Position numbers and translations under genes: made by a program. A stretch of DNA of 64,000 bases. It comes from Clostridia bacterium. GTDB lineage: Bacteria > Bacillota > Sulfobacillia > SLMV01. A model generated the notes under the pieces. The model was given only the letters and a program-made list of their open reading frames with translations, had not been told where the DNA came from and searched no databases. Positions within the stretch are counted from its first letter, which is position 1, and each line of letters opens with the position of its first letter. This document shows positions 32,522-52,508 of this stretch, one piece after another. The stretch lies in the NCBI GenBank assembly GCA_003552525.1, contig PUNF01000036.1, forward strand, positions 6,552 to 70,551, written 5' to 3'.

Positions 32522-32977
32522 TTACGGTAATCCCACCAGGTTTCTCGCCTGTCGCTGAGAAGACTCCCTGGCCTCCTCGCGCAACCACCGGTTAAGCAGG
32601 TACACTCCCACCGCCAGATAGGGGCCGGCGAGCACGTAATGATAGGCGGTCACCGGCGGGAGATCGAAGGCCCAAGGGGCGACCGTCAGCGTTTCGAGCC
32701 ACCGTTGGGCAACCGAGATCGGGAAGGCAAAACGCAGGAACGTCAGGTAATCCTCGAGCAGGTACATCGAGATCCGCGCCCATTCGCGTTGGCCGGGCCA
32801 GAGAAAAAAGTACACCGTATCTCCCACGGCTTTTCCGATCATGAAAAAGAGAAAGAAACGGAGGAAGTGGGGGAAAGCGGGAAATAGCCCATCCAGCAAC
32901 CACATTCCAAACTGCAAGGTCGCCAGTACGACGGCACCCAAGAGGGTGAAGCGCCTCTTGGCATCCAAGAAAATCAA
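32522..32977 (-). CDS. Small hypothetical integral membrane protein (about 4 TM), last gene of module A operon
   Basis: 151 aa, hydrophobic segments rich in aromatic residues (F, W, Y), no recognisable family. Its start is 5 nt after the module-A partner stop. Confidence 0.45.
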   Translation of the reverse strand: MIFLDAKRRFTLLGAVVLATLQFGMWLLDGLFPAFPHFLRFFLFFMIGKAVGDTVYFFLWPGQREWARISMYLLEDYLTFLRFAFPISVAQRWLETLTVAPWAFDLPPVTAYHYVLAGPYLAVGVYLLNRWLREEARESSQRQARNLVGLP

Positions 32978-32982
32978 CCTCT

Positions 32983-34251
32983 CTACGATGCGTTGGATGT
33001 CCTACATAACTCGACATTTGCCAGGGGGATCGTCTCTACCCTGTCATCCGCGTGACGGCGAACCCGCACGGAATCCAGCAGCATACCGGAGGGGTAGCGG
33101 ACGGTCCCCACGTGCTCCTGCACGGTGGCCATCTGTCCAAGCGCGTCGACACCGAGCAGGCGGACGTGGTCACCCGGTTGCGGCACCCCGGGCTCCACCG
33201 CGATGCGGGGAATATCTGCCCCAAAAACCCCGGGGAAGAGCAATTCGGCATCTCCATCACGCAGGATGGTGATCGATACCATGGCACCGTCGAAGGTCTC
33301 CAGACCCTGCACGAAGACCCGGGGAAGCGGTCGTCTTCCGAATCCGGCCAGCAATACCAGCCCGAATCCCGGATCCGTTTCCAGCGTCTCGGACATGTCC
33401 CTCCAATCCAATCCGCCAGCCACCAGTCCCGCCACACCCATGTCCAGGGCGCGGCGGCTCGTATCGGCGGTGGGCGTGCCGGTCAAGGCAACCACGGTAC
33501 CCGGTTCGACCGCGGCCAGGTCGGCGGTCTCGGTCACTACCTTGAGGCGCCCGGTTGCCTCACCCCCGGAACCGTATACACCCCGCATGACCCCCACTTC
33601 ACCGTGCACGACGGCACCCCTGGCATCCACGAGCGACTCCACCGTACCCGCCACCTGGGCATGCACGGTGTGCTCCTCCACGTTTCTTGCGATGATAATG
33701 CTACCGGTGGCCCGATCGAACCGCTCCACCGTGCCCCCGAAGGGCGTGTACGCGTAGTTGGCGCCGTCCACCCCGGGGGCCGCCGCAAGGATTTGGCCTT
33801 CTTCTATCTCGTCCCCCTCGCGGACGCGGACGTGCATCCAGGCCACGGCCGGCCACACCTTGAGTGCCTCCACGATATTGATCGACTGCCGCGCCCGTTC
33901 ACTGCCGGGTTCTTCCCTGAGGTATACGCGCCCACGGGAGCGGGACAAGTACTCGACGAGTCCATCGATGGGACTCGTGACCTCAAAGGGCGCAACGGGA
34001 CCGCGCGCAACGCGGTCACCCGCGCGCAAACGGTCGCCTACATTGACCTCGATCCGCGTTTCATCGGAAGCGCGAAGATCGGGTCCTATATCGATGACAT
34101 AAGGGCTGCCGGTCAACAGGCGGGCGCGAGCAATGGGCGTCTCCGGGGCTACAACATCCCCGGGCTCGACGAGGACCTCCCCCGGGAGGCGAAGTGCACG
34201 AGTCTTGCGGATCCGGCGATTCTCGATCATGGGTGAACCCCTACTGGACAT
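32983..34251 (-). CDS. Module A partner protein: N-terminal lipoyl/biotinyl-like hybrid-barrel domain plus an uncharacterised C-terminal alpha/beta domain; paralog of 44262..45410
   Basis: 422 aa. N-terminal ...GEVLVEPGDVVAPETPIARA... and ...VNVGDRLRAGDRVA... resemble barrel-sandwich hybrid motifs, but no lipoyl or biotinyl Lys context is present. The C-terminal GVAGLVAGGLDW ... LVLLAGFGRRPLP is paralogous to GVVGLVSGGIVD ... LTLIITEGFGPM in the module B partner. Start overlaps the upstream ATPase stop. Confidence 0.55.
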   Translation of the reverse strand: MSSRGSPMIENRRIRKTRALRLPGEVLVEPGDVVAPETPIARARLLTGSPYVIDIGPDLRASDETRIEVNVGDRLRAGDRVARGPVAPFEVTSPIDGLVEYLSRSRGRVYLREEPGSERARQSINIVEALKVWPAVAWMHVRVREGDEIEEGQILAAAPGVDGANYAYTPFGGTVERFDRATGSIIIARNVEEHTVHAQVAGTVESLVDARGAVVHGEVGVMRGVYGSGGEATGRLKVVTETADLAAVEPGTVVALTGTPTADTSRRALDMGVAGLVAGGLDWRDMSETLETDPGFGLVLLAGFGRRPLPRVFVQGLETFDGAMVSITILRDGDAELLFPGVFGADIPRIAVEPGVPQPGDHVRLLGVDALGQMATVQEHVGTVRYPSGMLLDSVRVRRHADDRVETIPLANVELCRTSNAS

Positions 34252-36070
34252 CTGAACGCGCCTCCTCTTCCGAAGTTAAGCCCATCGCGGCTCTCCAGCG
34301 TGCCGAGGTGGCGGGTCCGGCGGCATCCGGACCCGATGGCTGCAGCGGTCGACCCCGTGCATCGATGATCAGGCCGACTTCGCCGCCCCGTATGGTGGCA
34401 GACACGCGCTTGCCGGGTCCATCCCCGAGGTCGTAATTGCGTCGCGGGATGACATCGATGTCCATCGTCCTGTCGGTGGCCAGCGGGATTACTTCGAGCT
34501 CTCCCGCCCTGAGAAGGCGCGAGTATCGCTCCCCGTCGGCGGCCGTCAGGTACATCTCGGCAATGGGTGTGCGATGTCGGCCCCAGGGTTCTCCGGTCGG
34601 GGCCACCACGGTGGCGAGGGGGAGTAACCAGCGCGTGAAGAAGGCATCGGCCAGGTCGGGGGCGTGCTCCATGACGGATCCCACCTGTGCCAGGAGTCCC
34701 TCCCGATCGACGTACAGCCGACTAATGCCGGCGGGCTGAATTCCGTCGAGTAGCAGGAGTGCTGCCTCCGCGGGCGATGGCGTGATCCCCAGGATGCTGC
34801 CGGTACCGACGATGACGTCGAGTGCGGTGGCCTCCACGAGCGGCTGTCCCGTCTTCGTTTGTTCGAAGGTATCGTCAAAGGTGCGATATTGCTTGATCCC
34901 ACGAAGCCCCACGACCAGCTCGCGATGCTCTTCAAAAGCGATGCGCAGGCTCTCCCGCGCCAGACTGTGGAGCAAGTCCAAATCGCGTGCGGTTTCTGGA
35001 ACCGTGCCCGGCCGCAGCGTCCGATTGATTGCCCAGTTTTCCACCAGGCGGCGGTCCACCGGATGGTGCAGCCATCGCGACACGCCCTCCACCCCGACCC
35101 GATCCAGGACGCCTGACGCACTGTACCCCACGCCGAGATCACCACTGACGGAGCGGTTGTAGCGTTCACGGATGATACTGAATACGTCCACGGTGGCCGA
35201 ACCCATGTCCACACCGAGCACATTGACCCCGTATCGGGTGGCCATCGCCCGCAGGATTCTCCCGGTCGCGGCGGGAGTAGGCTCGAGCATCCCCCCGGTG
35301 TGATAAAGGAGATCGGCGTAACCGGGCGTACGCCGGGCAACGTGCTCGAGGTATAAATCCGAGATCGTTTTTCGGACCGGCTCCAGGCTTTCTTCTTCCA
35401 GGCTGGGACGCAAGTTCTCGACCACGTGTACTTCTCCGACGGAGCCTAACAAAGAGGCTACCGGTTGCCGGGCCTGCACGTTGCCGGCAAAAATGATGGG
35501 TATCCCGTCGCCATCACCGAGCCGGGGTTTTGGCCCGGCGGCCACCAGGTACTCCGCCAGTCCCACGACATGTTCCACGGTACCCGTATCGGTCCCCCCG
35601 GCCATCAGGATCATATCCGCCTCTGCGTTGCGGATGATGTCGAGACGCTCCGATAGTGTTCGACCATCATCCGTGGCCACGACCGCTGAGACCGTAGCGC
35701 CCGCTCCGAGTGCTGCCCTCTCGGCACTCTCCGCTGTCATCATCCGTACCAGGCCCAGGCACAGCAGGCGCATTCCGCCGGCCGCACTGCTCGTTGCCAC
35801 CAGGATGTCGGCCCCGCGATCATCCACGGCCCCGGTGAGGAGGGGCTGATCGTCTTCAACCAGTACGCGGCCCGTCTTGGCCTCCAACTCCCCGAGGGCC
35901 GAAACGAGGCCCGGCATCACGGTGTCACCCTCCGCACTCCACGTCGTAGCCGCCCGACCCACGCCGACCAGGGAGTACCCGGTCGCGTCACAGGCGAAGA
36001 GGGCCACCTTGGTGCTGGCGGAACCGATGTCCGCTGTTAGGATCGTGCGGGTTTCCTCGTGCTCAGCCAA
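34241..36070 (-). CDS. Module A EutA/MutL/DdrA-type ASKHA ATPase (B12-enzyme reactivase-like family), 609 aa
   Basis: N-terminal phosphate-1 motif ILTADIGSASTKVALF (compare EutA GIDIGTTTTQVIF and DdrA IAGIDIGNSSTEVALA). MTAESAERAALGAGA, GGTDTGTVEHVVGLAEYL and a second-lobe LGVDMGSATVDVF align with the diol-dehydratase-reactivase alpha / EutA pattern. ATG start preceded by GGGGAGG. Confidence 0.7.
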   Translation of the reverse strand: MAEHEETRTILTADIGSASTKVALFACDATGYSLVGVGRAATTWSAEGDTVMPGLVSALGELEAKTGRVLVEDDQPLLTGAVDDRGADILVATSSAAGGMRLLCLGLVRMMTAESAERAALGAGATVSAVVATDDGRTLSERLDIIRNAEADMILMAGGTDTGTVEHVVGLAEYLVAAGPKPRLGDGDGIPIIFAGNVQARQPVASLLGSVGEVHVVENLRPSLEEESLEPVRKTISDLYLEHVARRTPGYADLLYHTGGMLEPTPAATGRILRAMATRYGVNVLGVDMGSATVDVFSIIRERYNRSVSGDLGVGYSASGVLDRVGVEGVSRWLHHPVDRRLVENWAINRTLRPGTVPETARDLDLLHSLARESLRIAFEEHRELVVGLRGIKQYRTFDDTFEQTKTGQPLVEATALDVIVGTGSILGITPSPAEAALLLLDGIQPAGISRLYVDREGLLAQVGSVMEHAPDLADAFFTRWLLPLATVVAPTGEPWGRHRTPIAEMYLTAADGERYSRLLRAGELEVIPLATDRTMDIDVIPRRNYDLGDGPGKRVSATIRGGEVGLIIDARGRPLQPSGPDAAGPATSARWRAAMGLTSEEEARSDVQ

Positions 36071-36199
36071 GCCGGTACCTCCCCGCTAACCGGAAACGGC
36101 AACCGAATTTGTTGCTCTCCCTTCTTTCGTTTCGGGGCAAATGATTCCCTGCATGGATCTTAATCCGGAGGGAATGGCTGTCGAATGGATGAATCGCAA

Positions 36200-36225
36200 A
36201 CACCCCTCCCGCCGGGGAGGGGTGT
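36200..36225 (-). terminator. Rho-independent terminator after guaB
   Basis: Perfect 10-bp stem ACACCCCTCC / GGAGGGGTGT with loop CGCCGG, 25 nt after the guaB stop, followed on the minus strand by GUUUGCGAUU. Confidence 0.5.
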
Positions 36226-36250
36226 GCAGGATGGAGTCAAGTCCCGTGAC

Positions 36251-39228
<2,978 letters not shown>

Positions 39229-39239
<11 letters not shown>

Positions 39240-39771
39240 CGATGGTCGCCTCGTCCCCGTCGGGAGCCTCGCGAGTGGTCCGCTGCACAACGCGGGCGGG
39301 GACACCGGCTACGAAGGCGCCGGCGGGAACATCGGCGGTGACGACGGCTCCCGCCCCCACGACGGCACCGGCACCCACGGTGACGCCGGCGAGCACGGTC
39401 GCGTTCGCACCGATCATCGCACGGGGCCCGATGATCGTGGGGCCGATACGGTACTCGTCCACGAGGAACTCGTGCGCGAGGATCGTCGCGTTGTAGCCCA
39501 ACATGCAGTTGTCGCCCAGGGTAATGAGCTCCGGCCAAAATACGTCCATCATGGCAGCCAGGCCACAAGCCACGTCACGGCCGACGGTCATACCACGCCA
39601 ACGATACAGCGCGTTCTTCCAGGAGAACACCGGTAGATAACGGGCCAGGGTAATGGCCAAAAAATTGAGAATAACCCGATGCATGGGCACGGCACGAAAA
39701 CAAGCATGCAACGAGTTGCGTTCCCCCTCGACGGGGAAAACCTGTAGTCGCCGACCAGGCCCGTTGCTCAT
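39229..39771 (-). CDS. Hexapeptide-repeat (left-handed beta-helix) acyl/acetyltransferase
   Basis: Repeats IGANATVLAGVTVGAGAVVGAGAVV; 180 aa. ATG forms an ATGA overlap with the tsaD stop. Confidence 0.6.
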
Positions 39772-40808
39772 AAATGGATCTCCCCTCCACCGCGCACGCC
39801 CAGGGCAGGATCAACATCGATGTCCCAACGATCGCTCCCATGCTCCCGATACCTTCGATAACCGGCGGCCGCCACCATCGCGGCATTGTCGGTACAATAA
39901 TGGATCGGGGGAATATGCAGGGTGTAGCCGCGGGAGCGGGTCTCCGCCTCCAGGCGCTGGCGCAAATGGCTGTTCGCCGCAACCCCGCCGGCCGCGATTA
40001 CACGATTTGCCCCGGTCTGTTCGGCCGCAAGCATGGTCTTGTGCACCAGGACATCGACCGCGGCCTCCTGAAAAGACGCTGCCAGCTGCGCCGCCGATCG
40101 CTGATCGGTAACCTCGCGGGCGGACAGCGCCACGGCGGTCTTTAACCCGCTGAAGCTGAAGTCGAGATCCCCCGAGGACAGCATCGGCCGGGGGAGGTCG
40201 ACCCGGCCACCGGTGTATCCGGACGCCATCCGGTCGATAATGGGACCACCGGGGAAACCGAGTCCCAGGATACGGGCGACCTTGTCGAAGGCTTCTCCCG
40301 CGGCATCATCCCGGGTTCCCCCCAGGTGACGCGCCGTGCCCTCCGAATAGTGGAGGAGATCGGTATGCCCGCCCGATACGATCAGGCAGACCGAGGGAGA
40401 CGGCAACGTCGCCGAGCCGGAATCGAGGGCGGCCGCCCAAAGATGTGCTGCCACGTGATTCACACCCACGAGGGGCAATTCCCGTCCCCGGGCCAGGCCC
40501 TTGGCCGCCATGAAACCCACAAGCAGAGACCCCACCAGACCGGGTCCCCGGGTTACCGCGACCAACCCGATATCGGCGAGGGTAACACCTGCCTCGGAGA
40601 GGGCAGCATCGATGACCGGAAGGATGTTTTCGCTGTGCCGCCGAGAAGCCAGTTCCGGGACGACACCCCCGTGCACCTTGTGGACGGATTCCTGTGAACC
40701 GACGATATTGGCGTGCACGCACATGTCCGCATCCACCACAGCGGCCGCGGTGTCGTCACAGGAGGTTTCGATGCCGAGAATCCGAAAACGGCCATCCATC
40801 CGATTCAT
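39768..40808 (-). CDS. tsaD: tRNA N6-adenosine threonylcarbamoyltransferase (Kae1/TsaD)
   Basis: RILGIETSCDDTAAAVV ... HxxAH metal-binding motif (VNHVAAHL); 346 aa. Confidence 0.9.
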   Translation of the reverse strand: MNRMDGRFRILGIETSCDDTAAAVVDADMCVHANIVGSQESVHKVHGGVVPELASRRHSENILPVIDAALSEAGVTLADIGLVAVTRGPGLVGSLLVGFMAAKGLARGRELPLVGVNHVAAHLWAAALDSGSATLPSPSVCLIVSGGHTDLLHYSEGTARHLGGTRDDAAGEAFDKVARILGLGFPGGPIIDRMASGYTGGRVDLPRPMLSSGDLDFSFSGLKTAVALSAREVTDQRSAAQLAASFQEAAVDVLVHKTMLAAEQTGANRVIAAGGVAANSHLRQRLEAETRSRGYTLHIPPIHYCTDNAAMVAAAGYRRYREHGSDRWDIDVDPALGVRGGGEIHL

Positions 40809-41314
40809 TCACCCTTTCTTCTCAGCACTAGCCCGATATCTGCACAACACATCAGCACGGCGTCCTCTCCCGTGTCGGTGTAGTAGCCGGGCTTGATCTT
40901 GACTTCCTCGAAACCGTAGCGCCCGTAAAACGATCGCGCAAGAGCGTTGGAGACCCGCACCTCGAGCGTCATCCGCCGGAGCCCGTGCGCCAGGGCGCGC
41001 GCCATCAGCGCCAGCAGCAGGTGCGCACCGAGACCCCTCCCCCGGTGATCGGGATCGACGGCGATATTCGTGACGTGTGCTTCCATGAGGAAGAGCCACA
41101 TCCCGGCATAACCGAGGATTTCGCCCGCGCACGTGACCACGATGTAGTCGGCCGAGATGTTTCGGGTGATCTCGGATCGGAAGGCACGCTCCGACCATGG
41201 CGATGCGAATGATCGGCGTTCGATCTCCAATACCCGCGGGATGTCGTCGACCGCCATCGCCCGGACCCGGCGCTCACCATCTTCGCATCGGAGCGCGTCA
41301 TCTTCACGAGGCAT
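40805..41314 (-). CDS. rimI: Ribosomal-protein-alanine N-acetyltransferase (GNAT)
   Basis: GNAT motif A (VDPDHRGRGLGAHLL). Start re-placed at the verified ATG 41314, overlapping tsaB by 11 nt; the 134-codon ORF-track extension is rejected. Confidence 0.75.
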   Translation of the reverse strand: MPREDDALRCEDGERRVRAMAVDDIPRVLEIERRSFASPWSERAFRSEITRNISADYIVVTCAGEILGYAGMWLFLMEAHVTNIAVDPDHRGRGLGAHLLLALMARALAHGLRRMTLEVRVSNALARSFYGRYGFEEVKIKPGYYTDTGEDAVLMCCADIGLVLRRKGE

Positions 41315-42035
41315 CAAGGGGATCACCTTCCGGGTTGCGTCGCTTGACTTGCGTCTGGCGATAGTAGCGTGGAACGAGCAAGATGGGGTCACCACCGGCG
41401 CCTTTACCGAGCGCACGTTCTCCGAGGTATGCCACGGCTGCCGGCGAGACCATGAATCCGGACACCACGCCCGCCCAATCGCACCCACTCTCGGTATCCT
41501 CGATGGGTTCATCGGATAGCCACAGGCAGTCCGACGGCGGAACGCACATCGATTGGATCGTCTCCGCGGGGGTGCGGCGTGCCGGGGGCAGGATTTCCTC
41601 GGGCCACCAAAAACCCTCCGGCTCCATCTCGTCTTGACGCTTCTGCGGCCGCCCATAGGCGGCGGTAAAGAAGGCCCCACGGCGGGCACCGATGGCGGAC
41701 ACCACGTAAGGGGCACTGGGCAATGGCAGTGAAATGGCCAATGCGCAAAGGGTATCTACTCCGACGGCGGGAACGCCGAGGCTCCTTGCCAACCCGGCCC
41801 CGAAGGCACATCCGATCCGAATACCGGTGAAGGATCCCGGGCCGTGGGACACGGCAACCAGATCCAAATCACCAAGGGCGAGATCACAGGCATCCAGTAA
41901 CCGTTCAACAAGTCCGGGTAGCAGGGATGAACCCCGCGCTCCCGCCCGGATCATGGTGGTCGCGAGGGTAATCCCTTCGTATCTGAGCGCCGCGCCAACG
42001 CCGCGCGTCGACGTCTCGATTCCGACTACGAACAC
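41304..42035 (-). CDS. tsaB: tRNA threonylcarbamoyladenosine biosynthesis protein TsaB (YeaZ)
   Basis: VFVVGIETSTRGVGAAL; inactive Kae1 homologue, about 244 aa. GTG start at 42035, preceded by GAGAGGAAA. Confidence 0.8.
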   Translation of the reverse strand: MFVVGIETSTRGVGAALRYEGITLATTMIRAGARGSSLLPGLVERLLDACDLALGDLDLVAVSHGPGSFTGIRIGCAFGAGLARSLGVPAVGVDTLCALAISLPLPSAPYVVSAIGARRGAFFTAAYGRPQKRQDEMEPEGFWWPEEILPPARRTPAETIQSMCVPPSDCLWLSDEPIEDTESGCDWAGVVSGFMVSPAAVAYLGERALGKGAGGDPILLVPRYYRQTQVKRRNPEGDPLDAS

Positions 42036-42514
42036 GGTCTTGTTTCCTCTCGCGGTAGGATGCAGGTGCCGAGGCCAAACGCCCGGATCCGTATCTCGCG
42101 CCCCGAAACGGATCCCCCGGGGATCGCGATATGAATATCCACACGATCCACGATATCCCTCTCCAACGGGAGGCGATCCGCCCACTCGACGATCGCCACG
42201 GACCGATCGGAAAGCAAGCGATCCCAGGGTAAATCGTCACTTGCCTCCTCCGGGGACAGCCGGTACAGGTCGACGTGGTATATCGGGAAATGGCCGGTGT
42301 GCTCCCACACCAGGGTGAACGTGGGACTGCGATGGGGACCCGGTACACCGGCACCCTCGAGCATCCCGGACGCGAGCACGGTCTTCCCCGCTCCCAGGGG
42401 CCCCGACAAACCGACGAATATCCCCGTCTTCAGGCGCTGGCCAATGCGACGACCCAACGCACGCGTTTCACCTTCACCGTTTGTCTGTACCCGCAGGCAG
42501 TGCGTCGCACTCAT
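42026..42514 (-). CDS. tsaE: tRNA threonylcarbamoyladenosine biosynthesis ATPase TsaE (YjeE)
   Basis: P-loop GLSGPLGAGKTVLASG; 163 aa after re-placing the start at the verified ATG 42514. Confidence 0.8.
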   Translation of the reverse strand: MSATHCLRVQTNGEGETRALGRRIGQRLKTGIFVGLSGPLGAGKTVLASGMLEGAGVPGPHRSPTFTLVWEHTGHFPIYHVDLYRLSPEEASDDLPWDRLLSDRSVAIVEWADRLPLERDIVDRVDIHIAIPGGSVSGREIRIRAFGLGTCILPREETRPCS

Positions 42515-43143
42515 GAGGGAACCTCGTAACCCGCTGCCTCTAGAACCATCTTGATATCTTCCCAAACCGGCGCTTTCTTCCTGGGGTCGCGAAGAAGGGC
42601 GGCCGGGTGGAAGGTCGGCATTACCCGGATCCCGTTCCATTCCTGCCAGGTCCCGCGCATCCGCGTAATACGCGCATCGGCATCGATCAGGCCCTGTGTT
42701 GCCGCTGCTCCCATGGACACGAGGATTTTCGGCCGGATCAGCCGCATCTGTGTCCGGAGATAGGGCATACACCGATCCCTCTCGAATTCGCTCGGCGTCC
42801 GGTTTTCCGGGGGGCGACATTTCACGATGTTGGTGATGTAAACCAGGTTCCTCTGTAGACCGGCAGCCGCGATGATTCGATCCAGAAGCTTCCCCGCTCG
42901 ACCGACAAATGGCCTCCCCAGCCGATCCTCGTCGGCCCCGGGGGCCTCCCCCACGAACACCAGGTCTGCATCGGGCTTGCCCTCACCGAACACCACGCCC
43001 TTACAGGTTGCACGCAGGTGACAACGCCGACAATCGAGCGCAACCTCCCGCAGCGCATCGATGGTATCGAGGTCGTCCAAGAGGCGAGACTGACCGGAAT
43101 CGGCATGGGCGCCCATCGCATCTTTGGCGCCGGGGCGCAGCAT
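42511..43143 (-). CDS. udg: Uracil-DNA glycosylase, family 4 (UdgA-type, Fe-S)
   Basis: CRRCHL ... [35 protein letters not shown] matches family 4 UDG motifs. Start placed at the verified ATG 43143; the upstream 168 codons of the ORF track are rejected. Confidence 0.75.
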
Positions 43144-43204
43144 CTCCGCCTTCGACTCGTCGTGCTCTCGTGCGAAATCGAGTCCCTGTTGTTGAAACTG
43201 CTCC

Positions 43205-44137
43205 TCATCCCTCGGGCGCATTCCGCCTGGCCTCCTCCATTCGCTTGAGCATTTCTTCCTGCCTTTTGCGCATGGTTTCACGATACGCAGCCACATATTG
43301 CATGTTCTCGTGTTGATGACACCGGACGCGCGCCCCGAGCCCCTCCCGTAGTTGTTCGACGCTCTCGAGAATCCGATCTCCAAGGGACTGGGCTTCGGGA
43401 CAATCGGGGCGACAAGGGTAGAAATACAGGGCAAAGTACGCCGAAGTGGATTCGGGGTAACCCATCTCCTCCAGTTGCTCCGAGGCCCGTTCACCGGAGT
43501 CCAGCCCGCGCTCCGCCTCCCGGATATATGCCTCGACGCAACACGCGGGATAACCCAGGATGATGCCGACGGCATCGAGGTATAGCGGGGACATCTCTTC
43601 CGGCAAGAACACGGCGCTGATGTCCCGGTTTTGCTGCGCATCCTCACGAATGCGGTCTCGCATGCTCATCACCCGGCTGATCCGATCCATCGTCTCTTCT
43701 TCTCGGGCAATATATAGGTCGTCGAGGCTTGGGCGCAGGTCCTTTTGATACGTATCGAGCCGCAACCTTTCCGCCCACTCGCGGTGTGCACGATACTCCG
43801 GATGCTCATATACCACATCCGTGAAAGCGGATCGGACGAGACCGGCTCGAAAGATCAGCGGAGTGCTCAAAAGTTTCTGTAGGTTAAGGCGCGTTCGGTC
43901 CACAAAACCCAACAGGCCGCGCCTGCCACCGCCGGAATAAAACTTCCTCGCGTAATCCGCATCGATGGCTTCTCGAATCGCTTCTCCCGATGGGAACTCA
44001 GCGGGAACCATTAAAGAAGCCGCAGGACGTATCCCGGTCAACACCGGGAGATAATCCTCCAGCTTCACCCGCTCCCCAATGCGCGTATCCGCGAGAAAGG
44101 CCTCGAGGGTCGATTCTCTCATGTTCATGCGCGCCAC
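43205..44137 (-). CDS. Hypothetical Cys-rich protein (GYPACC / YPCRPDCPEA motifs; DUF483-like)
   Basis: 310 aa, soluble, with conserved Cys clusters CC...C...C suggestive of a metal site. Sits 124 nt downstream of the module B partner. Confidence 0.45.
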   Translation of the reverse strand: MARMNMRESTLEAFLADTRIGERVKLEDYLPVLTGIRPAASLMVPAEFPSGEAIREAIDADYARKFYSGGGRRGLLGFVDRTRLNLQKLLSTPLIFRAGLVRSAFTDVVYEHPEYRAHREWAERLRLDTYQKDLRPSLDDLYIAREEETMDRISRVMSMRDRIREDAQQNRDISAVFLPEEMSPLYLDAVGIILGYPACCVEAYIREAERGLDSGERASEQLEEMGYPESTSAYFALYFYPCRPDCPEAQSLGDRILESVEQLREGLGARVRCHQHENMQYVAAYRETMRKRQEEMLKRMEEARRNAPEG

Positions 44138-44261
44138 TCCCGTCCGTCTACTTCTTAGACCTCATTCAACCGGCGTCCGTGGCAATCCTGCCCCAAGACC
44201 ACGAACCCAGGCCACGAAAAAGGGGGCCCGAAGGCCCCCTGGTCGCGACGTCGCTGCATCA

Positions 44262-45410
44262 CTAGCCCTCGATAATCTCCACATTTGCACGAGGCACCAT
44301 GACTTCGGTGCCGTCAGCAAGCCTGGCATTGAGCACGCGCACCCGGGTCTCGCTCTCGACAACCTGCAGCTCCGGGGGAAGCCCGGTGACCTCCGCGAGG
44401 GCGCCAAAATAAGGATCACGGATGATCCGGATGGGTGTTCCGACACCCAGGCCGCCACTTTCGTCCTCGTCCTCGGTATCCACATCCTCGGGGGCATCCC
44501 GCAATTGCTCGAGCATGCTGGCGTCCGGGCTAATGATCTCCGGCCGCATCACCCCTGCACGAATCTGCGTCGCACCGTTGAGGGAGGCCTCCTGCCCTTC
44601 CAGTTCTTGGAGGAGCTCGAACGTCTTATCCGCGATGCGCATCGGGCCGAAACCCTCGGTGATGATGAGCGTCAGCGGAATGTCCTCGTGTCCGGTAATG
44701 GCCACGCCGATATCATAGCCCAGGTAATCGATGAGATCGGCGTCCACGATACCACCCGAAACGAGACCGACCACGCCGACTTCCTCGGCGCGACGGAGAA
44801 TTCCGGCCGTGGCCACGCTGCCAACGACGACGATCTTACCCTCACAGCTGGCATCGAGCGCCGACGGCTCTATCCTTTCGTCGGGCGAAGATGCGACAAC
44901 CTTGATCGCGCCACGACGCTCGCCGCCGATACCGAAGATACCCTGGATGAAAGCCCCGGCGGTTTCGACGACCACGCCCTCCTCGGGCAAAACCCGGCGG
45001 ACGATTCCCTCCACGTAGGCCTCTACATCCAGTGGCGTCGGGGGCTCTCGCAATACCATCTGTCCACTGACATCGGAGATCATCTCGACGGTACCATCCA
45101 CTGGCGACATCTGCTCCGACTTGAATAGGCCGAAAAAGGATATCTTGCGCGCGATGACCTGCCCTTTCTCGACGGTCTCGCCCTCTTTCACCGTCACCAC
45201 GTCCGGCAGCTCGTAGGGTTCCACCGTTAACAGCTGCGAGATATTTACGCTAACGGGATCACCGGGAATCTCGGTCTTGGCGACGACGTCATGGGGCTGC
45301 ACCATGTCCCCGACTTCGACCGTCACCTCGCCTTTAATGGGAAGGCGGCGCGTCTTGCGAACGACCTCCCGGTTACTCACCTTCAGCCCCGGAGTATACG
45401 CATGAGCCAT
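44262..45410 (-). CDS. Module B partner protein: lipoyl/biotinyl-like N-terminal barrel plus an alpha/beta domain; paralog of 32983..34251
   Basis: 382 aa. N-terminal KGEVTVEVGDMVQPHDVVAKTEIPGD and VKEGETVEKGQVIA ... SPVDGTVEMISDVSGQMV are hybrid-barrel motifs. C-terminal KIVVVGSVATAGILRRAEEVGVVGLVSGGIVD ... LTLIITEGFGPM, plus an acidic EDVDTEDEDESGG linker. Its start abuts the upstream ATPase stop. Confidence 0.55.
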   Translation of the reverse strand: MAHAYTPGLKVSNREVVRKTRRLPIKGEVTVEVGDMVQPHDVVAKTEIPGDPVSVNISQLLTVEPYELPDVVTVKEGETVEKGQVIARKISFFGLFKSEQMSPVDGTVEMISDVSGQMVLREPPTPLDVEAYVEGIVRRVLPEEGVVVETAGAFIQGIFGIGGERRGAIKVVASSPDERIEPSALDASCEGKIVVVGSVATAGILRRAEEVGVVGLVSGGIVDADLIDYLGYDIGVAITGHEDIPLTLIITEGFGPMRIADKTFELLQELEGQEASLNGATQIRAGVMRPEIISPDASMLEQLRDAPEDVDTEDEDESGGLGVGTPIRIIRDPYFGALAEVTGLPPELQVVESETRVRVLNARLADGTEVMVPRANVEIIEG

Positions 45411-45411
45411 T

Positions 45412-47292
45412 TTATACCGCCCGCCCTTCCTCGATGTACTTCATGAGGGCGTCCATGGGATAAATATCGAGCGCCTCGATCCAGTTCCTGATCTGCTTGC
45501 GGCGATCGGCCTCCTCTTTCTCGAGAAAGACCGGGCGGCCGCGTGCATCGATGATCAGTCCGACGATTCCACCCTCGACTTCCACGTCCATGGCGCGCCC
45601 CGTGCCCTCGCCGACGTCCCAGCGGCGGCCGGGCTCCACGTGTGCCTGGGCAACGCTTCCCTCTTCGAGCGGGATCAACCGGATCTCGCCGAACCCGAGG
45701 GTCTCCACCCGCTCCGTGCCATCGGGCATGGTGAGCGTCACCTTGACCGGGGTGGAGTCGCGGAGGTTCTCCATCCTGATGCCTTCCTGGGGTACCGGGG
45801 CGATACTGCTCCCGAGGCACACCAGGCAATCGCGGTCGAAGACCTGCGCCGATGCCTCGGGATGCACCGTGGCCAAAACACCCAGCTGTGGCATCATAAA
45901 GATGCTGTCGACCGCCAGGCGCGTAACACCCTCGGGTTGGAAGGCATCCAGCATCATCAGTGCGGACTGCACGCGGCGCGGTGCGTGGGACAATACCCCA
46001 CCACTGCCGAGGATCATGCCGAGGGTCATCATGTTCACGAGCGTCGCACCGCTGACCTTCTGGTCAAAAGTATCTCCCATGTCTCGGGCCTGGCGAATAC
46101 CCTTCAAGCCGGTCGCCAGCGTCTTGTGGTGTTCGAACGCGAGGCGCAGGGCTTCCCGCGCAAGGGCCTGCTCCACCACGAGTTCCTCGAGGGAATGGGG
46201 AATCGTCGTCGGGCGAATCATCTTGTTGCGGATTCGGCTGCGAAGCGCCTCCTCCGATACGGACATGGGCAACCACCGGGAGATGCTGTCCAACCCGGTC
46301 TCCAGCAAAACGTTGCATATACTGTAGCTCATCCCGAGGTTGGCCGATACCGTGCGGTTGAAGGTGCCGGCGAACACACTGAAAACATCGGTGGTGGCGC
46401 CCCCGATGTCTACCCCCAGCACTTCCATCTTGTATTGCTTGGCGACGTTTTGGATACCCAGCCCGACCGCGCCCGGCGTCGGCATGATCGGGGCATCTGT
46501 CCAACCCATGAGCTTGTTGTACCCGGGTGCCTGGGCCATGACGTGCTCCATGAAGAGGTTGTGGATCTCCTCGCGCGCGGGTTCTAGGACCTCTTCTTCC
46601 AGTACGGGCCGTATGTTATCGACCAGGCGAAGGTCCAGGCTCTCTCCCAGTGTATCCCTGACGTGTCCGCGGGCGTCCTTGTTACCCGCAAAGATAACGG
46701 GCAGCTGGAAACCGATCCCGAGGCGCGGACGCGGATCCGCTGCGGCGATCAATTCGGCGATCTGGCTCACGTGGGCAATGGTGCCGCCATCCACACCACC
46801 GGACAGTAGGATCATATCCGGTCGCAATTGACGGATCCGGGAAATCTTTTGGTGTGGCAATCTCCCATCGTCTACCGAGATCGCATCCATGACGATGGCA
46901 CCCGCGCCCAATGCCGCGCGTTCTGCACTCTCGGCCGTCATCGTCTTCACGACCCCGGCCACCATCATTTGTAGTCCGCCACCGGCACTACTAGTGGAAA
47001 GATAGACGTCCGCGCCCTTCTCATCCGACGCCCGTGGTCGAATTACTCCCTCGGGCGCAAGGAGCGTCTTGCCGGAAAGTTCTTCCACCTCGGTCACGGC
47101 ATTGCGCACGCCCATGGTCACGTCCTCAAAGGGTGCTTCCACCGTCGTGGGAGCCTCACCGCGGACGATAAGCCGATACTCACCATCGCGCTTTTCGATG
47201 AGAATGGCCTTGGTGGTCGTACTTCCACAGTCGGTGGCGACAATAGTTTGGATTTGATCCTTTGGAATCTTCGTTACACCTTCCGTCGACAA
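45412..47292 (-). CDS. Module B EutA/MutL/DdrA-type ASKHA ATPase (reactivase-like family), 626 aa; paralog of 34241..36070
   Basis: IVATDCGSTTTKAILI phosphate-1 motif, MTAESAERAALGAGA, GGVDGGTIAHVSQIAELI, and second-lobe VLGVDIGGATTDVF. About 50% identical to the module A ATPase over most of its length. Start re-placed at TTG 47292, preceded by GGGAGGAGGAGAGG. Confidence 0.7.
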   Translation of the reverse strand: MSTEGVTKIPKDQIQTIVATDCGSTTTKAILIEKRDGEYRLIVRGEAPTTVEAPFEDVTMGVRNAVTEVEELSGKTLLAPEGVIRPRASDEKGADVYLSTSSAGGGLQMMVAGVVKTMTAESAERAALGAGAIVMDAISVDDGRLPHQKISRIRQLRPDMILLSGGVDGGTIAHVSQIAELIAAADPRPRLGIGFQLPVIFAGNKDARGHVRDTLGESLDLRLVDNIRPVLEEEVLEPAREEIHNLFMEHVMAQAPGYNKLMGWTDAPIMPTPGAVGLGIQNVAKQYKMEVLGVDIGGATTDVFSVFAGTFNRTVSANLGMSYSICNVLLETGLDSISRWLPMSVSEEALRSRIRNKMIRPTTIPHSLEELVVEQALAREALRLAFEHHKTLATGLKGIRQARDMGDTFDQKVSGATLVNMMTLGMILGSGGVLSHAPRRVQSALMMLDAFQPEGVTRLAVDSIFMMPQLGVLATVHPEASAQVFDRDCLVCLGSSIAPVPQEGIRMENLRDSTPVKVTLTMPDGTERVETLGFGEIRLIPLEEGSVAQAHVEPGRRWDVGEGTGRAMDVEVEGGIVGLIIDARGRPVFLEKEEADRRKQIRNWIEALDIYPMDALMKYIEEGRAV

Positions 47293-47365: not shown

Positions 47366-47752
47366 TCATCCTGCCGACCCCTCGGGGGGATCGTCTTTTC
47401 GCTCCTCCGCATCCTCAGATCGCCGCTCCGCCTTCTCCTCGGCAGCCCGCTTACGCGCTGCGCGACGCTGCTTCTCTTCTTCTTCGATCATTTCTTCAAG
47501 GCGCTCGACAAGGCGATCCAGGTTCTCTCGATCCTGAAGCAAATACCCAATTTCCGAGGCATAGGGATGCCCGGTGAAAAGGTTCGTAAACGGTGCCAGC
47601 ATGTGCATCCCCTGGCTGGTTACAAACGAAAGCGGGCGGAAACCGTCAAATAACATGATGGCGGGCGCGACCATCTCCCACTCGTAGATCCGCTGTGCAG
47701 CCCACTCGATCAATTCATCCCGTCTCTCGGGAGAAATATCATCTCTGCGCAC
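47366..47752 (-). CDS. Hypothetical protein with a highly charged (E/K/R-rich) C-terminal tail, immediately upstream of the module B ATPase
   Basis: 128 aa. A conserved-looking N-terminal region (EWAAQRIYEWEMVAPAIMLFDGF...) is followed by ERLEEMIEEEEKQRRAARKRAAEEKAERRSEDAEERKDD, a low-complexity charged tail. No family assigned. Confidence 0.4.
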   Translation of the reverse strand: MRRDDISPERRDELIEWAAQRIYEWEMVAPAIMLFDGFRPLSFVTSQGMHMLAPFTNLFTGHPYASEIGYLLQDRENLDRLVERLEEMIEEEEKQRRAARKRAAEEKAERRSEDAEERKDDPPEGSAG

Positions 47753-48042: not shown

Positions 48043-49290
48043 TCATCGGGATGCCGGGCTATCACTGCATACGACGTGGTTCAGCACAACGCCGGCCAAA
48101 AGCATCATGCCCACCTCGAGGGCTCTTTCGTCGATGTCGAATTGGGGGTGATGCACCGGGGGAGCGGGTGTCTCGGACTCCGGATTTGCCACGCCCAGGC
48201 CGATGAAACAACCGGGGACGCTTTCGCTGAAGTAAGAGAAGTCCTCGCCACCAATGCTCGGGGCATCCAGCGGGGAAAACGCGCCGGGACCGAGGTGTTG
48301 CTGGGCCACGCGACGCACCCGATCCACCAGGCCAGCATCGTTTTTCACCGCGGGATAACCCGTCTTGTAATGCACGGTGCCCGTCGCCCGCATGCTCGCG
48401 GCAACCCCGTCCACCAGGCGTTCAATTCTATCGCGAAGCACCGTACGCGTTTTTTCGGTCACGCACATCGCGGTACCTTCGATGCTCACCCTTGGTGCGA
48501 TAATGGTGTTCCGATACCCGCCGCAAATCTTCCCGAGGCTCACCGCCACCGGTTCGGACGGTGAGGTTTCGCGACTGACCAGCCCTTGCAGGGCGCCGAT
48601 GACCTGCCCCGCGACCACGATCGCATCCACCGCGCCGTGGGGCTGGCTCCCGTGTCCCGCGACACCATCGATATCGATCACGATCTCGTCGTTAAACCCC
48701 ACCACGACCCCGGCCCGCGTCGAAACGGTCCCGGTCGGCAGGCTCGGGTTGACGTGAAGTGCATACACCGCATCGACGGCGGGATTCGCGAGAACACCGG
48801 CATCCCGCATCGGAAGGGCACCTCCGTTGCCCTCCTCGTCGGGTTGGAAGATGAACTTGACGTTTCCTGCCAATGCACACCCCTCGGCACGCATGTTTGA
48901 CAATAGGCGCGCCACGCCGACCAAGATCGCGGTATGGGCATCGTGTCCACACGCGTGCATGACGCCCGGCCTGCGAGAACGGTATGATACATCCTTGGCA
49001 TCGGACATCGGGAGCGCATCCATGTCCGCTCGCAAGGCCACCGTCGGCCCGGGGCCGTCGCCCCGCAAAAGCCCCAACACCCCGTGGCCTCCCAGCCCCT
49101 GGGTCACCTCGAGACCCATTCGGTGAAGTCTCTGCGCAACGAGATCGGACGTATCCACCTCGTGACCGCCGAGCTCGGGGTACATATGCAAGTGCCGCCG
49201 AAACGCCCGGATGTCCTCCCCGATCCTTCGGACCCGCCGCAGCATATCCGCGCGGGAAAGATCGAATTCTGCAGGTCTACAATGATCCAT
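48043..49290 (-). CDS. M20 family amidohydrolase (aminoacylase / hippurate hydrolase-like)
   Basis: HACGHDAHTAILVG metal-binding motif and an M20D dimerisation domain. ATG at 49290 verified, avoiding overlap with the upstream paralog. Confidence 0.8.
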   Translation of the reverse strand: MDHCRPAEFDLSRADMLRRVRRIGEDIRAFRRHLHMYPELGGHEVDTSDLVAQRLHRMGLEVTQGLGGHGVLGLLRGDGPGPTVALRADMDALPMSDAKDVSYRSRRPGVMHACGHDAHTAILVGVARLLSNMRAEGCALAGNVKFIFQPDEEGNGGALPMRDAGVLANPAVDAVYALHVNPSLPTGTVSTRAGVVVGFNDEIVIDIDGVAGHGSQPHGAVDAIVVAGQVIGALQGLVSRETSPSEPVAVSLGKICGGYRNTIIAPRVSIEGTAMCVTEKTRTVLRDRIERLVDGVAASMRATGTVHYKTGYPAVKNDAGLVDRVRRVAQQHLGPGAFSPLDAPSIGGEDFSYFSESVPGCFIGLGVANPESETPAPPVHHPQFDIDERALEVGMMLLAGVVLNHVVCSDSPASR

Positions 49291-49366
49291 CAGCGCACCT
49301 TCCCGGGGCCAATCCCCCAATGCAACGCGAACGCCCATCACCTTGCGATGGGCGTTCGCGGACTCA

Positions 49367-50605
49367 TCATGATTCGCGAGAGAGATATGCCAGGGCCACA
49401 CCCGTCATGACCGTGACACCCGTGACCAATCCACCCTCGTCGATATCAAACTTGGGATTGTGATTGGGATATACCCCGAGGCCCTTCTCCGCATTGTGCA
49501 CGCCGAGGCGGAAGAAACAGCCGGGTACCGCCCGGGCGAAGTACGCGAAATCCTCCGCTCCCATGCTGGGCTCGGGGATATCGAGAACCGCGGACGGCCC
49601 GAGCAGCACACTCGCCGTATCGAAGAAAAGGTCCACCATCTCCCGGTCGTTCTCCAGTGGCGGATACCCCCGTTGGTAATCCAGGCGATAGTCCGCGCGC
49701 ATTGCCCCCGTGATCCCCGACAGGATCCCCTCTATTCGATCCTGCAGCATATCCCGCGTCTCATCGCTCAGTGATCGGATCGTCGTCTCCATTTTCACGT
49801 TGGGTGCGATGATATTGTTTCGGTATCCGCCCTCGATTCGGCCGACGGTGATGACGGCCGCGTCCGCAGGAGAAACCTCGCGGCTGACGATCGTCTGAAG
49901 AGCCGTGAGGGCCTGCGCCGCGACGATCACGCTGTCAACGGACTTGTGCGGATGCGCACCATGCCCGCCGCTTCCTATGATTTCGATGCGCGCCTCATCA
50001 GCGGCAGCGGTGATCACGCCACTGCGGGAACCCACGGTCCCGACCGCGTGCTCAACGCTGACGTGTAGACCGAACACGGCATCCACCACGGGGTCTTCGA
50101 AAGCACCCTCGGCCAGCATCGGTTCGGCTCCGCCCGGACCCTCCTCCGCCGGCTGGAAGAGGAACTTGACGTTGCCCTTCAAGGTCCTACCACAATCGGT
50201 AAGTTCTACCAGCGCCTTGGCAGTGCCCATGAGGCAGGCAGTGTGGGCGTCGTGTCCACACGAATGCATCTTGCCTTGCACACACGATGCGTACTCCACA
50301 CCGGTATCTTCATCCATGGGGAGGGCATCCATATCCGCGCGCAGGGCGACCGTGGGGCCATCCTGTGCCCCCCGAAGCAAGCCGATTACCCCCGTGGTCG
50401 CGACGGACTCTGTCACCTCGATGCCGAGTGCCCGAAGGAACGCGGCGACCGTGGCCGCCGTCTCAAATTCCTCCATGCCGAGCTCGGGATTGCGGTGAAA
50501 CGCACGTCGCAGTGCGATGACCTCGTCCGATAGGGCCTCGGCTTGACCACGTATCTCCCCCACGGTAACGGGACCGATTTGTCGGTCCTGATCGATTTCG
50601 CTCAC
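49367..50605 (-). CDS. M20 family amidohydrolase (tandem paralog)
   Basis: HSCGHDAHTACLMG motif; about 45% identical to the adjacent M20 gene. Confidence 0.8.
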   Translation of the reverse strand: MSEIDQDRQIGPVTVGEIRGQAEALSDEVIALRRAFHRNPELGMEEFETAATVAAFLRALGIEVTESVATTGVIGLLRGAQDGPTVALRADMDALPMDEDTGVEYASCVQGKMHSCGHDAHTACLMGTAKALVELTDCGRTLKGNVKFLFQPAEEGPGGAEPMLAEGAFEDPVVDAVFGLHVSVEHAVGTVGSRSGVITAAADEARIEIIGSGGHGAHPHKSVDSVIVAAQALTALQTIVSREVSPADAAVITVGRIEGGYRNNIIAPNVKMETTIRSLSDETRDMLQDRIEGILSGITGAMRADYRLDYQRGYPPLENDREMVDLFFDTASVLLGPSAVLDIPEPSMGAEDFAYFARAVPGCFFRLGVHNAEKGLGVYPNHNPKFDIDEGGLVTGVTVMTGVALAYLSRES

Positions 50606-50627
50606 GAGTACCTCCTCCTTCTCGGGA

Positions 50628-51470
50628 CTAGCGGCTCGAACACGACGCCAGGTAGATCATGGCACGCAGGCCACGATAGGCCGACGGCGCATCCTGGGCA
50701 GTATACTCTACCTCAACCGGGGACTTCCGCTCGGATCCGGGCAGCAGTCCCGCGAGGTCTGCCATGGCCGTATCCCTGGTTGTAAGCGCGACTGTGACCG
50801 GGGATTCGGACTTGGGTTCGGGGATTTCACCCGCCCCCAATGCCTTCATCGCCGCGGCCATTCCCTCGCGGATGGCCGCGCGCGCCGCCTCCGGCGGCAT
50901 GCACAATGCGGCATAGCGTCCCACATCTTCTTTGACGGCCGTGGTCACTGCGGACGGGTTTCGCTCCTGCACCTGGCGACACGTGGCAGTGTCACCGCTG
51001 GTGAATATCAGCGGGATCCCAAAGTGCGCGGCAATCGCGGCGTTGAGTCCCGCCTCCCCAACCTCCACGCCATTGAGCACGAGTCGCGATACCACCGCAC
51101 CGGAAATGGTATGGTTGAGCACCCCATGCGTTCCCGCCCGCGCATGGTATCCCACGAACGCAGCGGCGGCAAAACCATCCCGATCGTCGATCCCTTCCAT
51201 CTGCCCCATTAACTTTGGTGCGCCGGTCAACAGGCGGGCGGACGGGTGAATATCCTCGATGAGAAGGTTTCTCATGCCCCCGTGTCCATCATTGACGATG
51301 ACCTCGTCGGCTCCTCCATCCACCGCTCCCGCTACCGCTGCATTGACTTCCTCTGTCACGAGCTTGCGCGTCCGCGCGTAATCCGAGCCCCCGGCTCCGA
51401 CCTGGTCGCCATGGACCACGCCGCTGACACCCTCCAGATCGGCCGATATGTATATGCGTAACATATTCAT
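50628..51470 (-). CDS. dppA: D-aminopeptidase DppA (peptidase M55)
   Basis: MLRIYISADLEGVSGVV ... VNDGHGGM is the M55 signature; 280 aa. Confidence 0.8.
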   Translation of the reverse strand: MNMLRIYISADLEGVSGVVHGDQVGAGGSDYARTRKLVTEEVNAAVAGAVDGGADEVIVNDGHGGMRNLLIEDIHPSARLLTGAPKLMGQMEGIDDRDGFAAAAFVGYHARAGTHGVLNHTISGAVVSRLVLNGVEVGEAGLNAAIAAHFGIPLIFTSGDTATCRQVQERNPSAVTTAVKEDVGRYAALCMPPEAARAAIREGMAAAMKALGAGEIPEPKSESPVTVALTTRDTAMADLAGLLPGSERKSPVEVEYTAQDAPSAYRGLRAMIYLASCSSR

Positions 51471-52508
51471 CTACTCCCTTCCGGTGTCGACTCTCCCCTC
51501 GCGCAGGGCGAACCGGGGACGAATCACACCTACCGTGTCTCCGGGAAGGTTCTCGTTGGCGTGTACCCGGAACGCTTCCAGGCGATCTTGGTCTTCTCCG
51601 GACCACAATCCCATCTGCCGCGCCGTCTCGACGGCCACCATCCCGGCGGCCCGACCATCGCCGTCCTCGGTCTTCACCGCGATACCGATACCCGCTCGCT
51701 CATCACCGATACAATAGACCCCCGCCGCACCGCTCTTAGCCACGAAACGGCCGGAAGGCAATCCGTTGATCGCGGTGCAAATTCGACCGGTTCCTCCGAC
51801 CAGGAGCGGTTCTTCTCGCATCGCGATCCGCACTCCGCGTGCCGCGTCGGCACGTTGCGCGGGTAACCCGGAGCCGCTGGCCAATCGTGCGAACGCATAT
51901 GCCATGTGCATAATCGGAAGACCATGTACCACGACACCACAACCATCCGGGGCCACGGCAATGTCCGCCGCATCGATACCGGCCATACCCGCAACCACGT
52001 CCATGATGTAATCCTGCACCGGGTGTCCGACACGCCGGTAATTCGTGGGATCAAGACCGAGTTGCACGCAAAGTGCAAGCATGGCCGCGTGCTTACCCGA
52101 ACAATTGCAGTGGACTTCCCAGGGTTTCTTTCCGGCGGTGTACAATGCCTTGCGTGCATCCCGGTCGATGGGCGGATGGACCCCGCACTCGAGTAACCCG
52201 GGATCTACCCCGGCCTTCTCGAGGATCGCGTGGACTGCCTCCACGTGCTCGGGTTGACCGCTATGCGAGCCACATGCCACGGCAAGCTCCGACGCACCGA
52301 GCTGAAAGGCTTCAGCCGCACCGCTCTCGATGAGTGCCAAAGCCTGCAGGGGCTTGGCCGCCGATCGCATAAAAGTCACCAGCGAGGCATCGCCGGCAAA
52401 CGCCAAAACAGAGCCCGTCGTATCTACCACCGCAACAGATCCCCGATGGACGCATTCCACTAGGTCTCCCCGCGTCACTTCAACGAGGATCTCGGTTCTT
52501 TCGTTCAA
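51471..52508 (-). CDS. Asparaginase_II family protein (L-asparaginase II-like, PF06089)
   Basis: VEVTRGDLVECVHRGSVAVVD ... ACGSHSGQPEHVEAV matches the Asparaginase_II family pattern. Confidence 0.7.
   Translation of the reverse strand: MNERTEILVEVTRGDLVECVHRGSVAVVDTTGSVLAFAGDASLVTFMRSAAKPLQALALIESGAAEAFQLGASELAVACGSHSGQPEHVEAVHAILEKAGVDPGLLECGVHPPIDRDARKALYTAGKKPWEVHCNCSGKHAAMLALCVQLGLDPTNYRRVGHPVQDYIMDVVAGMAGIDAADIAVAPDGCGVVVHGLPIMHMAYAFARLASGSGLPAQRADAARGVRIAMREEPLLVGGTGRICTAINGLPSGRFVAKSGAAGVYCIGDERAGIGIAVKTEDGDGRAAGMVAVETARQMGLWSGEDQDRLEAFRVHANENLPGDTVGVIRPRFALREGRVDTGRE

Follow-up and report, generated by a model that had tools for sequence, protein, structure and literature searches.

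The DNA analysed here, referred to below as the window, is a 64,000-nucleotide stretch of contig PUNF01000036.1 (positions 6,552 to 70,551; assembly GCA_003552525.1) from a Clostridia bacterium (Bacillota; Sulfobacillia; SLMV01). Its G+C content is ~62% and the minus strand holds nearly all of its genes. On this strand lie two modules, A and B, in each of which the gene of an ASKHA-fold ATPase is followed by the gene of a smaller partner protein. In module A, the 609-residue ATPase A (34241-36070), a divergent paralogue in the MutL/GlmL family, overlaps at its stop by 11 nucleotides with the 422-residue partner A (32983-34251). In module B, the 626-residue ATPase B (45412-47292) is a canonical long form of the same family, and the 382-residue partner B (44262-45410) starts 1 nucleotide past its stop. 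The start of ATPase B at 47292 agrees with an identical database protein of 626 residues (P0121), and a 666-residue open reading frame (ORF) at this place is an upstream extension. The two ATPases are 41% identical over 579 residues and the two partners ~31% identical. The coordinates and protein sizes given in the initial annotation of the locus were borne out, as was its description of the modules as paralogues. The two copies are not equivalent, as discussed below: module A is degenerate and module B canonical.

Both ATPases belong to the MutL family. The Pfam MutL profile (PF13941; cut-off 27 bits) matches them at profile positions 1-448 of 450, with 314 bits for ATPase A (E 2e-93) and 419 bits for ATPase B (E 2e-125). 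The motifs quoted in the initial annotation are present in both copies, as ADIGSASTK and GGTDTGT in ATPase A, TDCGSTTTK and GGVDGGT in ATPase B, and AESAERAALGAGA in both. Like GlmL and other MutL proteins, they have an ASKHA core with an inserted alpha/beta domain and the motif pattern DxGSTxTK, SSAxGGL, GGxDGG and DxGGATTD. The NCBIfam cut-offs of the GlmL type are not reached. ATPases A and B score 179 and 223 bits against GlmL (NF040745, an equivalog with a cut-off of 475), 165 and 207 bits against Or-4 (NF040744; 600), and 125 and 158 bits against TIGR01319 (204). Neither protein matches the EutA or DDR Pfam families at E values up to 0.01. Of the EutA/MutL/DDR clade to which the ATPases had been assigned, the MutL part stands and the rest does not. 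Hydantoinase_A (PF01968; cut-off 22.9) gives 23.6 bits for ATPase B, with no single stretch above the cut-off, and 20.6 bits, below it, for ATPase A.

The GlmL reference we used, ECs_0763 of E. coli O157:H7 (462 residues), has glmS and glmE as the genes on either side. With this protein ATPase B shares 27% identity; its score is under half of the GlmL equivalog cut-off. The alignment stops at ATPase B residue 493; GlmL, at ~460 residues, ends with the ASKHA core, whereas ATPase B continues for ~130 extra residues. The C-terminal domains of the two module ATPases have no Pfam match at E values up to 1 and no NCBIfam match. To its orthologues in Bacillota, FCB-group phyla, Armatimonadota and archaea, including Bathyarchaeota and Culexarchaeum, ATPase B is 54-68% identical. 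Because identity is 27% to a genuine GlmL and 54-68% to orthologues in every sampled lineage, the sequence comparisons firmly support the assignment of the ATPase B type to a distinct, tightly constrained and very widespread long-form orthologous group in the MutL family.

In the AlphaFold model of ATPase B (predicted local distance difference test score, pLDDT, 82.9), the ASKHA core, in which the nucleotide site is intact, carries an inserted flavodoxin-like domain and is followed by a beta-rich C-terminal domain (~490-585) and two terminal helices. The insert bears the AESAERAALGAGA helix and GGxDGGT. The top Foldseek matches to the model are acetophenone carboxylase (5l9w, 1e-10), N-methylhydantoinase (9h03, 1e-9) and the beta subunit of acetone carboxylase (5svc, 2e-9). 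Hsc70 and DnaK follow at 1e-7 to 1e-6, through their nucleotide-binding and beta substrate-binding domains, and DdrA ranks 37th. The weak Hydantoinase_A score of ATPase B agrees with this ranking. The initial annotation had allowed that the large proteins might fall into an unrelated ASKHA family such as hydantoinase or FtsA. The end-to-end PF13941 matches place them in the MutL family, although the nearest solved folds are ATPase subunits of hydantoinases and carboxylases, followed by Hsp70 and FtsA.

The model of the partner shows a barrel-sandwich N-terminal domain, a swivelling beta/beta/alpha domain, an acidic linker and a KOW/SH3-like C-terminal domain. The earlier two-domain description captured the barrel-sandwich domain and overlooked the third, KOW/SH3-like domain. 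In Pfam searches partners A and B gave only weak barrel-sandwich matches. The N-terminus MAHAYTPGLKV is invariant, and its AYTPGL segment has a low pLDDT in the monomer model. Among 97 family sequences, residues with at least 95% identity include R21, E164, T239, E242, E252, T281, Q282, R284, R289, E291, R328, R374, N376 and E378. They are located in the motifs RRLP, GIFGxGGE, TGxE, TEGFG, GATQIRAGxxRPE and PRANVE. Lys97 in the barrel hairpin is not among these residues and varies between Lys, Arg, Asn and Thr in alignment A1. Since no modifiable lysine is conserved, the barrel represents a fold and not a lipoyl carrier, and we rejected a role as lipoyl or biotinyl carrier; of the lipoyl-barrel partner first described, the fold remains. 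We also considered a phospho-carrier related to the swivelling domain of the phosphoenolpyruvate (PEP)-utilising enzymes (enzyme I of the phosphotransferase system, PEP synthase and rifampin phosphotransferase). His241 of the TGHE motif is replaced by Gln in several sequences, and the partner has no invariant His. Asp223, placed at the phospho-His position by visual alignment, is constant among B-type sequences though not throughout the family, and the PEP-utilizers Pfam family gave no match. This reading was set aside as well. NqrA and RnfC also have N-terminal barrel-sandwich domains; the remainder of these proteins differs from the partner, which has no redox cofactor motifs.

The module is widespread. 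With each species represented by a single genome, we detected at least 594 loci, spread over many bacterial phyla and archaea, and the neighbourhood work used the best 80 of these. They come from Bacillota, WOR-3, Latescibacterota, Zixibacteria, Armatimonadota, Cloacimonadota, Poribacteria, Planctomycetota and Eisenbacteria, as well as Bathyarchaeota and Culexarchaeum. Their partners are 48-59% identical to partner B, with one close relative at 78%. More than 8000 clusters (90% identity) match the partner, and every named one is called 'hypothetical'. Our literature searches on the family names and related terms found no paper on the ATPase-partner system. The ATPase gene is directly 5' of the partner gene in 38 of the 62 loci with enough flanking sequence and within ~1.2 kb in 6 more. 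Two independent cluster representatives, P0259 (995 residues) and P0356 (1003 residues), are natural in-frame ATPase-partner fusions. The fusions, the adjacent or overlapping genes and the co-occurrence across phyla indicate that the ATPase and the partner act as a complex, in line with the pairing proposed originally. As single chains, P0259 and P0356 would make convenient constructs for structural work. Partner genes with no MutL-type ATPase within 10 kb on the 5' side come from WOR-3, Poribacteria and some Armatimonadota (L018, L020, L025, L039, L046, L053, L057, L063, L065, L068, L072, L074, L079, L082 and L086). In these loci either the ATPase is encoded elsewhere or the partner is able to act alone.

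The module is encoded apart from any B12 enzyme. Pfam scans of 44 ORFs in the window found no B12-dependent, glycyl-radical or microcompartment gene, as initially reported. We clustered the ORFs of the 80 partner-centred loci and followed this with hidden Markov model (HMM) searches; neighbour families seen in three or more of these loci include no B12 or radical enzyme. The orthologue survey thus yielded no consistent client gene and no sign of a B12 enzyme that had been relocated in this genome, and it extended the system beyond Bacillota. In Bacillota, the annotated neighbours that recur are tsaE, tsaB, tsaD, rimI, UDG and peptidases of the S58 and C26 families; in other phyla they are gcvT/H/P. 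We read both patterns as lineage synteny. The gcvT/H/P genes are upstream in nine loci, for which the phylum is uncertain.

Several small proteins accompany the module. A small conserved protein, c2 (47366-47752, minus strand; 128 residues), is encoded directly 5' of ATPase B and has an amphipathic core and a charged tail. In tblastn and HMM matches, c2 proteins of ~130 residues lie directly 5' of the ATPase in 24 of 37 testable loci, and a protein with two transmembrane segments, c10, is often 5' of c2. Downstream of partner A, a 151-residue membrane protein with hydrophobic segments is encoded at 32522-32977 on the minus strand. Elsewhere, a set of four membrane protein genes recurs near the module. 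Its composition is fixed: DUF6754, a six-transmembrane protein of ~210 residues, a transmembrane-domain-transmembrane protein of ~280 residues and a multi-transmembrane protein of ~210-240 residues. The set is absent from the window. Neither Pfam nor NCBIfam matches c2, c10, the three other proteins of the set or the 151-residue protein. DUF6754 is the sole Pfam match among the neighbouring membrane proteins, which therefore have no Rnf or Nqr match. Because conserved accessory genes flank the module and the membrane set recurs nearby in other genomes, the module is not the self-contained machine that was first suggested.

The membrane set is found with the module in Bacillota, Latescibacterota, Zixibacteria and Bathyarchaeota (L008, L013, L014, L017, L023, L034, L036, L048, L051, L054, L060, L062, L076 and L078), sometimes in two or three tandem copies. 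Such repeats are seen in L078, L129, L144, L152 and L160. We also surveyed 80 metagenome loci centred on DUF6754 (quartet-centred; L090-L169), where the operon is widespread and carries no annotation. The module is the sole recurrent non-housekeeping neighbour of the set in these loci; the purF and enolase families are also among the neighbours. The membrane set is an autonomous operon. In L165 (5363-8076), a stretch of ~2.2 kb without HMM matches separates c10 and c2 from the membrane set that comes after them, and no recognisable ATPase or partner lies in between.

Comparison with related genomes provided insights into the two modules of the window. In related Bacillota, the two modules adjoin each other, and the genes run c10, ATPase A', partner A', c2, ATPase B, partner B, DUF483 and UDG. 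Partner A has a second barrel-like insert of ~70 residues, as does partner A' of the first module in these relatives, and this common insert points to a shared origin of modules A and A'. ATPase A' is ~55% identical to ATPase B. ATPase A is 35-43% identical to family members generally; it keeps the nucleotide-binding motifs, and several other family-invariant motifs are altered. Partner A lacks GVAITGHEDIP and the GATQIRAG..RPE motif (NGATQIRAGVMRPE). In addition, LLAGFG replaces ITEGFG, with loss of the Glu, and IPLANVE replaces VPRANVE, with loss of the Arg. Orthologues of ATPase A form a small clade (47-68% identity) in about ten related lineages. In L087 and L089, the order ATPase A, partner A, 148-residue membrane protein and groES is the same as in the window, and the 151-residue protein shares 57% identity with its positional counterpart in L087. 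We infer that module B is the canonical, highly conserved working copy. Module A is a lineage-specific, fast-evolving paralogue and, since its partner has lost invariant motifs, probably has an altered or regulatory role. It could instead be a duplicate that is non-catalytic or in decay and has no function of its own, as the missing motifs of partner A and the low identity of ATPase A to all of its relatives would allow. This is an improbable account of module A, whose ORFs are both intact and resemble neighbouring genes in G+C content at third codon positions; the ATP-binding motifs are kept, and the orthologues persist in about ten lineages with a conserved three-gene order.

The modules are surrounded by core genes. 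The flanking genes guaB, murC, tsaD, UDG and groES, named in the initial annotation, were confirmed by Pfam scans, and guaA, hpt, groEL, rimI and tsaB also flank the modules. The pur operon, gatAB, opp genes, pcrA, glmS and others make up the rest of the window. A GC-rich, terminator-like hairpin followed by a T-run (44221-44240, minus strand; 8-bp stem with 7 GC pairs) lies 20 nucleotides past the partner B stop. It is a consensus match only and the probable end of the module B transcript. The DUF483-like gene (43205-44137, minus strand; 310 residues; PF04467, 28.9 bits against a cut-off of 25) is situated past this hairpin and is therefore probably transcribed separately. It occupies the same place downstream of partner B in L001, L003, L005 and L089 and is kept in Bacillota relatives only. 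Its membership in the module is doubtful. Directly 5' of module B, five head-to-tail peptidase or amidase genes on the minus strand (48043-53791) encode an S58/DmpA protein, an asparaginase II, an M55 D-aminopeptidase and two M20 proteins; C26 and S58 genes are found at the equivalent place in related Bacillota. A 149-residue ORF on the minus strand (41905-42354) has no Pfam match and lies where relatives have tsaE; the ORF at 42026-42820 (minus strand), in another frame, probably contains the true tsaE as its 3' portion. Within the minus-strand pur operon, a plus-strand ORF of 261 residues (20531-21316) with no Pfam match may be spurious, or a real gene may have been missed there. PADLOC gave no match for seven module and flanking proteins. 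We rejected an anti-phage defence function, given this result and the housekeeping-like conservation.

What does the module do? On the basis of its best fold matches, its requirement for a second subunit, the Gly-rich and charged motifs that are invariant in the partner, and the catabolic and membrane genes nearby, we propose, tentatively and as something possible rather than probable, that it is an ATP-dependent enzyme or machine with two components, of the same kind as the hydantoinases and carboxylases and often located at the membrane or close to it. In such an enzyme, ATP binding and hydrolysis in the ASKHA cleft would be coupled to the partner, whose GIFGxGGE, TGxE, TEGFG, GATQIRAG..RPE and PRANVE motifs would form a second site or a moving element. 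The pair would act on a small substrate, which the neighbours suggest may derive from amino acids or peptides. A position of the complex at the membrane would follow from the c2 protein, the 151-residue membrane protein and, in genomes other than this one, c10 and the DUF6754 set; the set may itself serve for uptake or be a partner within the membrane.

A number of observations weigh against this proposal. The HyuA-type proteins (hydantoinase, 5-oxoprolinase, acetone and acetophenone carboxylases) provide the nearest solved folds, but the TM-scores (template modelling scores) are low (0.2-0.3), with Hsp70, FtsA and PilM scoring nearly equally, and neither protein had a significant match, by sequence or by profile, among all Protein Data Bank sequences. 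No similarity could be detected between the partner and Hydantoinase_B-type subunits, and no Hydantoinase_B gene is among the scanned window genes. As noted above, the C-terminal domain of the module ATPase differs from the HyuA type in having no Pfam match. In 18 of the 62 testable loci, no ATPase is encoded within 10 kb upstream of the partner. The peptidase and glycine-cleavage neighbours may reflect lineage synteny rather than function, and we have set aside a link to glycine cleavage on this ground. The membrane set is near the module in 19 of the 80 partner-centred loci, with 4 more partial cases. Conversely, the ATPase or the partner is found in 8 of the 80 quartet-centred loci (3 of the 18 with at least 5 kb on both sides), which weakens the idea of an obligate link between the module and DUF6754. 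The link is real yet not obligate. Linkage of this sort is usual for an enzyme and a transporter, or for an accessory engine.

Other explanations share part of this evidence. An ATP-driven chaperone or activase of the DdrA/EutA/GlmL/Hsp70 kind, somewhat unlikely in our view, would act on a protein client such as the DUF6754 complex or an enzyme encoded elsewhere, and nucleotide-dependent motions of the swivel domain would serve to remodel that client or set it free. DdrAB is built from ASKHA, swivel and flavodoxin-like domains. Like DdrAB and EutA, our pair combines an ASKHA ATPase with a small partner and contains swivelling beta/beta/alpha and flavodoxin-like domains, the same three fold types being split differently between the two chains. 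The Hsc70/DnaK matches and the recurring membrane-protein neighbours are also consistent with such a role, as is membership in the MutL family, whose founding member was described as a glutamate mutase chaperone (PMC4682846). However, EutA/DDR Pfam matches are lacking, the neighbourhoods revealed no consistent client gene, and the membrane set adjoins the module in a minority of loci. The pair also differs from DdrAB and EutA in its lack of a B12-enzyme or microcompartment context (no eutBC, pduCDE or dhaB among the scanned window genes), and DdrA is a distant structural match. A true adenosylcobalamin-enzyme reactivase similar to GlmL, with its client, for instance a glutamate mutase or an aminomutase, encoded at another site of the genome, is very unlikely. 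The family scores are far under the GlmL and Or-4 cut-offs, identity to the real GlmL is low, and the architecture differs, with a three-domain partner that GlmL operons do not have and that is obligatory here. The DxHxxG motif is not among the invariant residues of the ATPase insert. No glmS/glmE pair lies near the module in the window, nor does one recur beside it in the 80 loci, and the same is true of B12 enzymes. The module is therefore probably not a B12-enzyme reactivase operon.

Two further possibilities place the module in an envelope machine. The ATPase, the partner, c2 and c10 could be the cytoplasmic engine of an ancient membrane machine for transport or energy coupling, with the DUF6754 set as its membrane part. 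We consider this unlikely; ASKHA-fold ATPases are not known to act as engines of membrane transport. It is highly improbable that the ATPase is an actin-like membrane scaffold of the FtsA/PilM type, which would dock peptides of membrane proteins or the partner N-terminus and organise an envelope machine. The AYTPGL segment, invariant yet of low pLDDT in the monomer, and the membrane-protein neighbours would fit a scaffold. The FtsA and PilM matches, however, span the generic ASKHA core alone (~250 of 626 residues). The invariant partner motifs, which are Gly-rich and charged, resemble ligand or catalytic sites more than a scaffold, and division or pilus genes are not linked to the module. Between the two readings offered in the initial annotation, a chaperone/reactivase-like machine and a new function for the fold, the latter is the better one.

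Our analysis has implications for genome annotation. Thousands of database entries call the ATPase 'glutamate mutase L' or 'methylaspartate mutase'. Because no B12 enzyme was found beside the module, the label 'glutamate mutase L' is probably wrong, and such names may cause metabolic reconstructions to infer B12-dependent glutamate fermentation wrongly. With 50-68% conservation between bacteria and archaea and its presence in at least ~590 species-level genomes, the system is a strong target for experiments. Should the module prove to be a new ATP-dependent enzyme that handles compounds derived from amino acids or peptides, or else to drive the DUF6754 set, it would supply a missing piece in the biology of numerous uncultivated anaerobic lineages. 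If it is an ASKHA membrane machine, it would be one common to many bacterial phyla and archaea and previously unrecognised.

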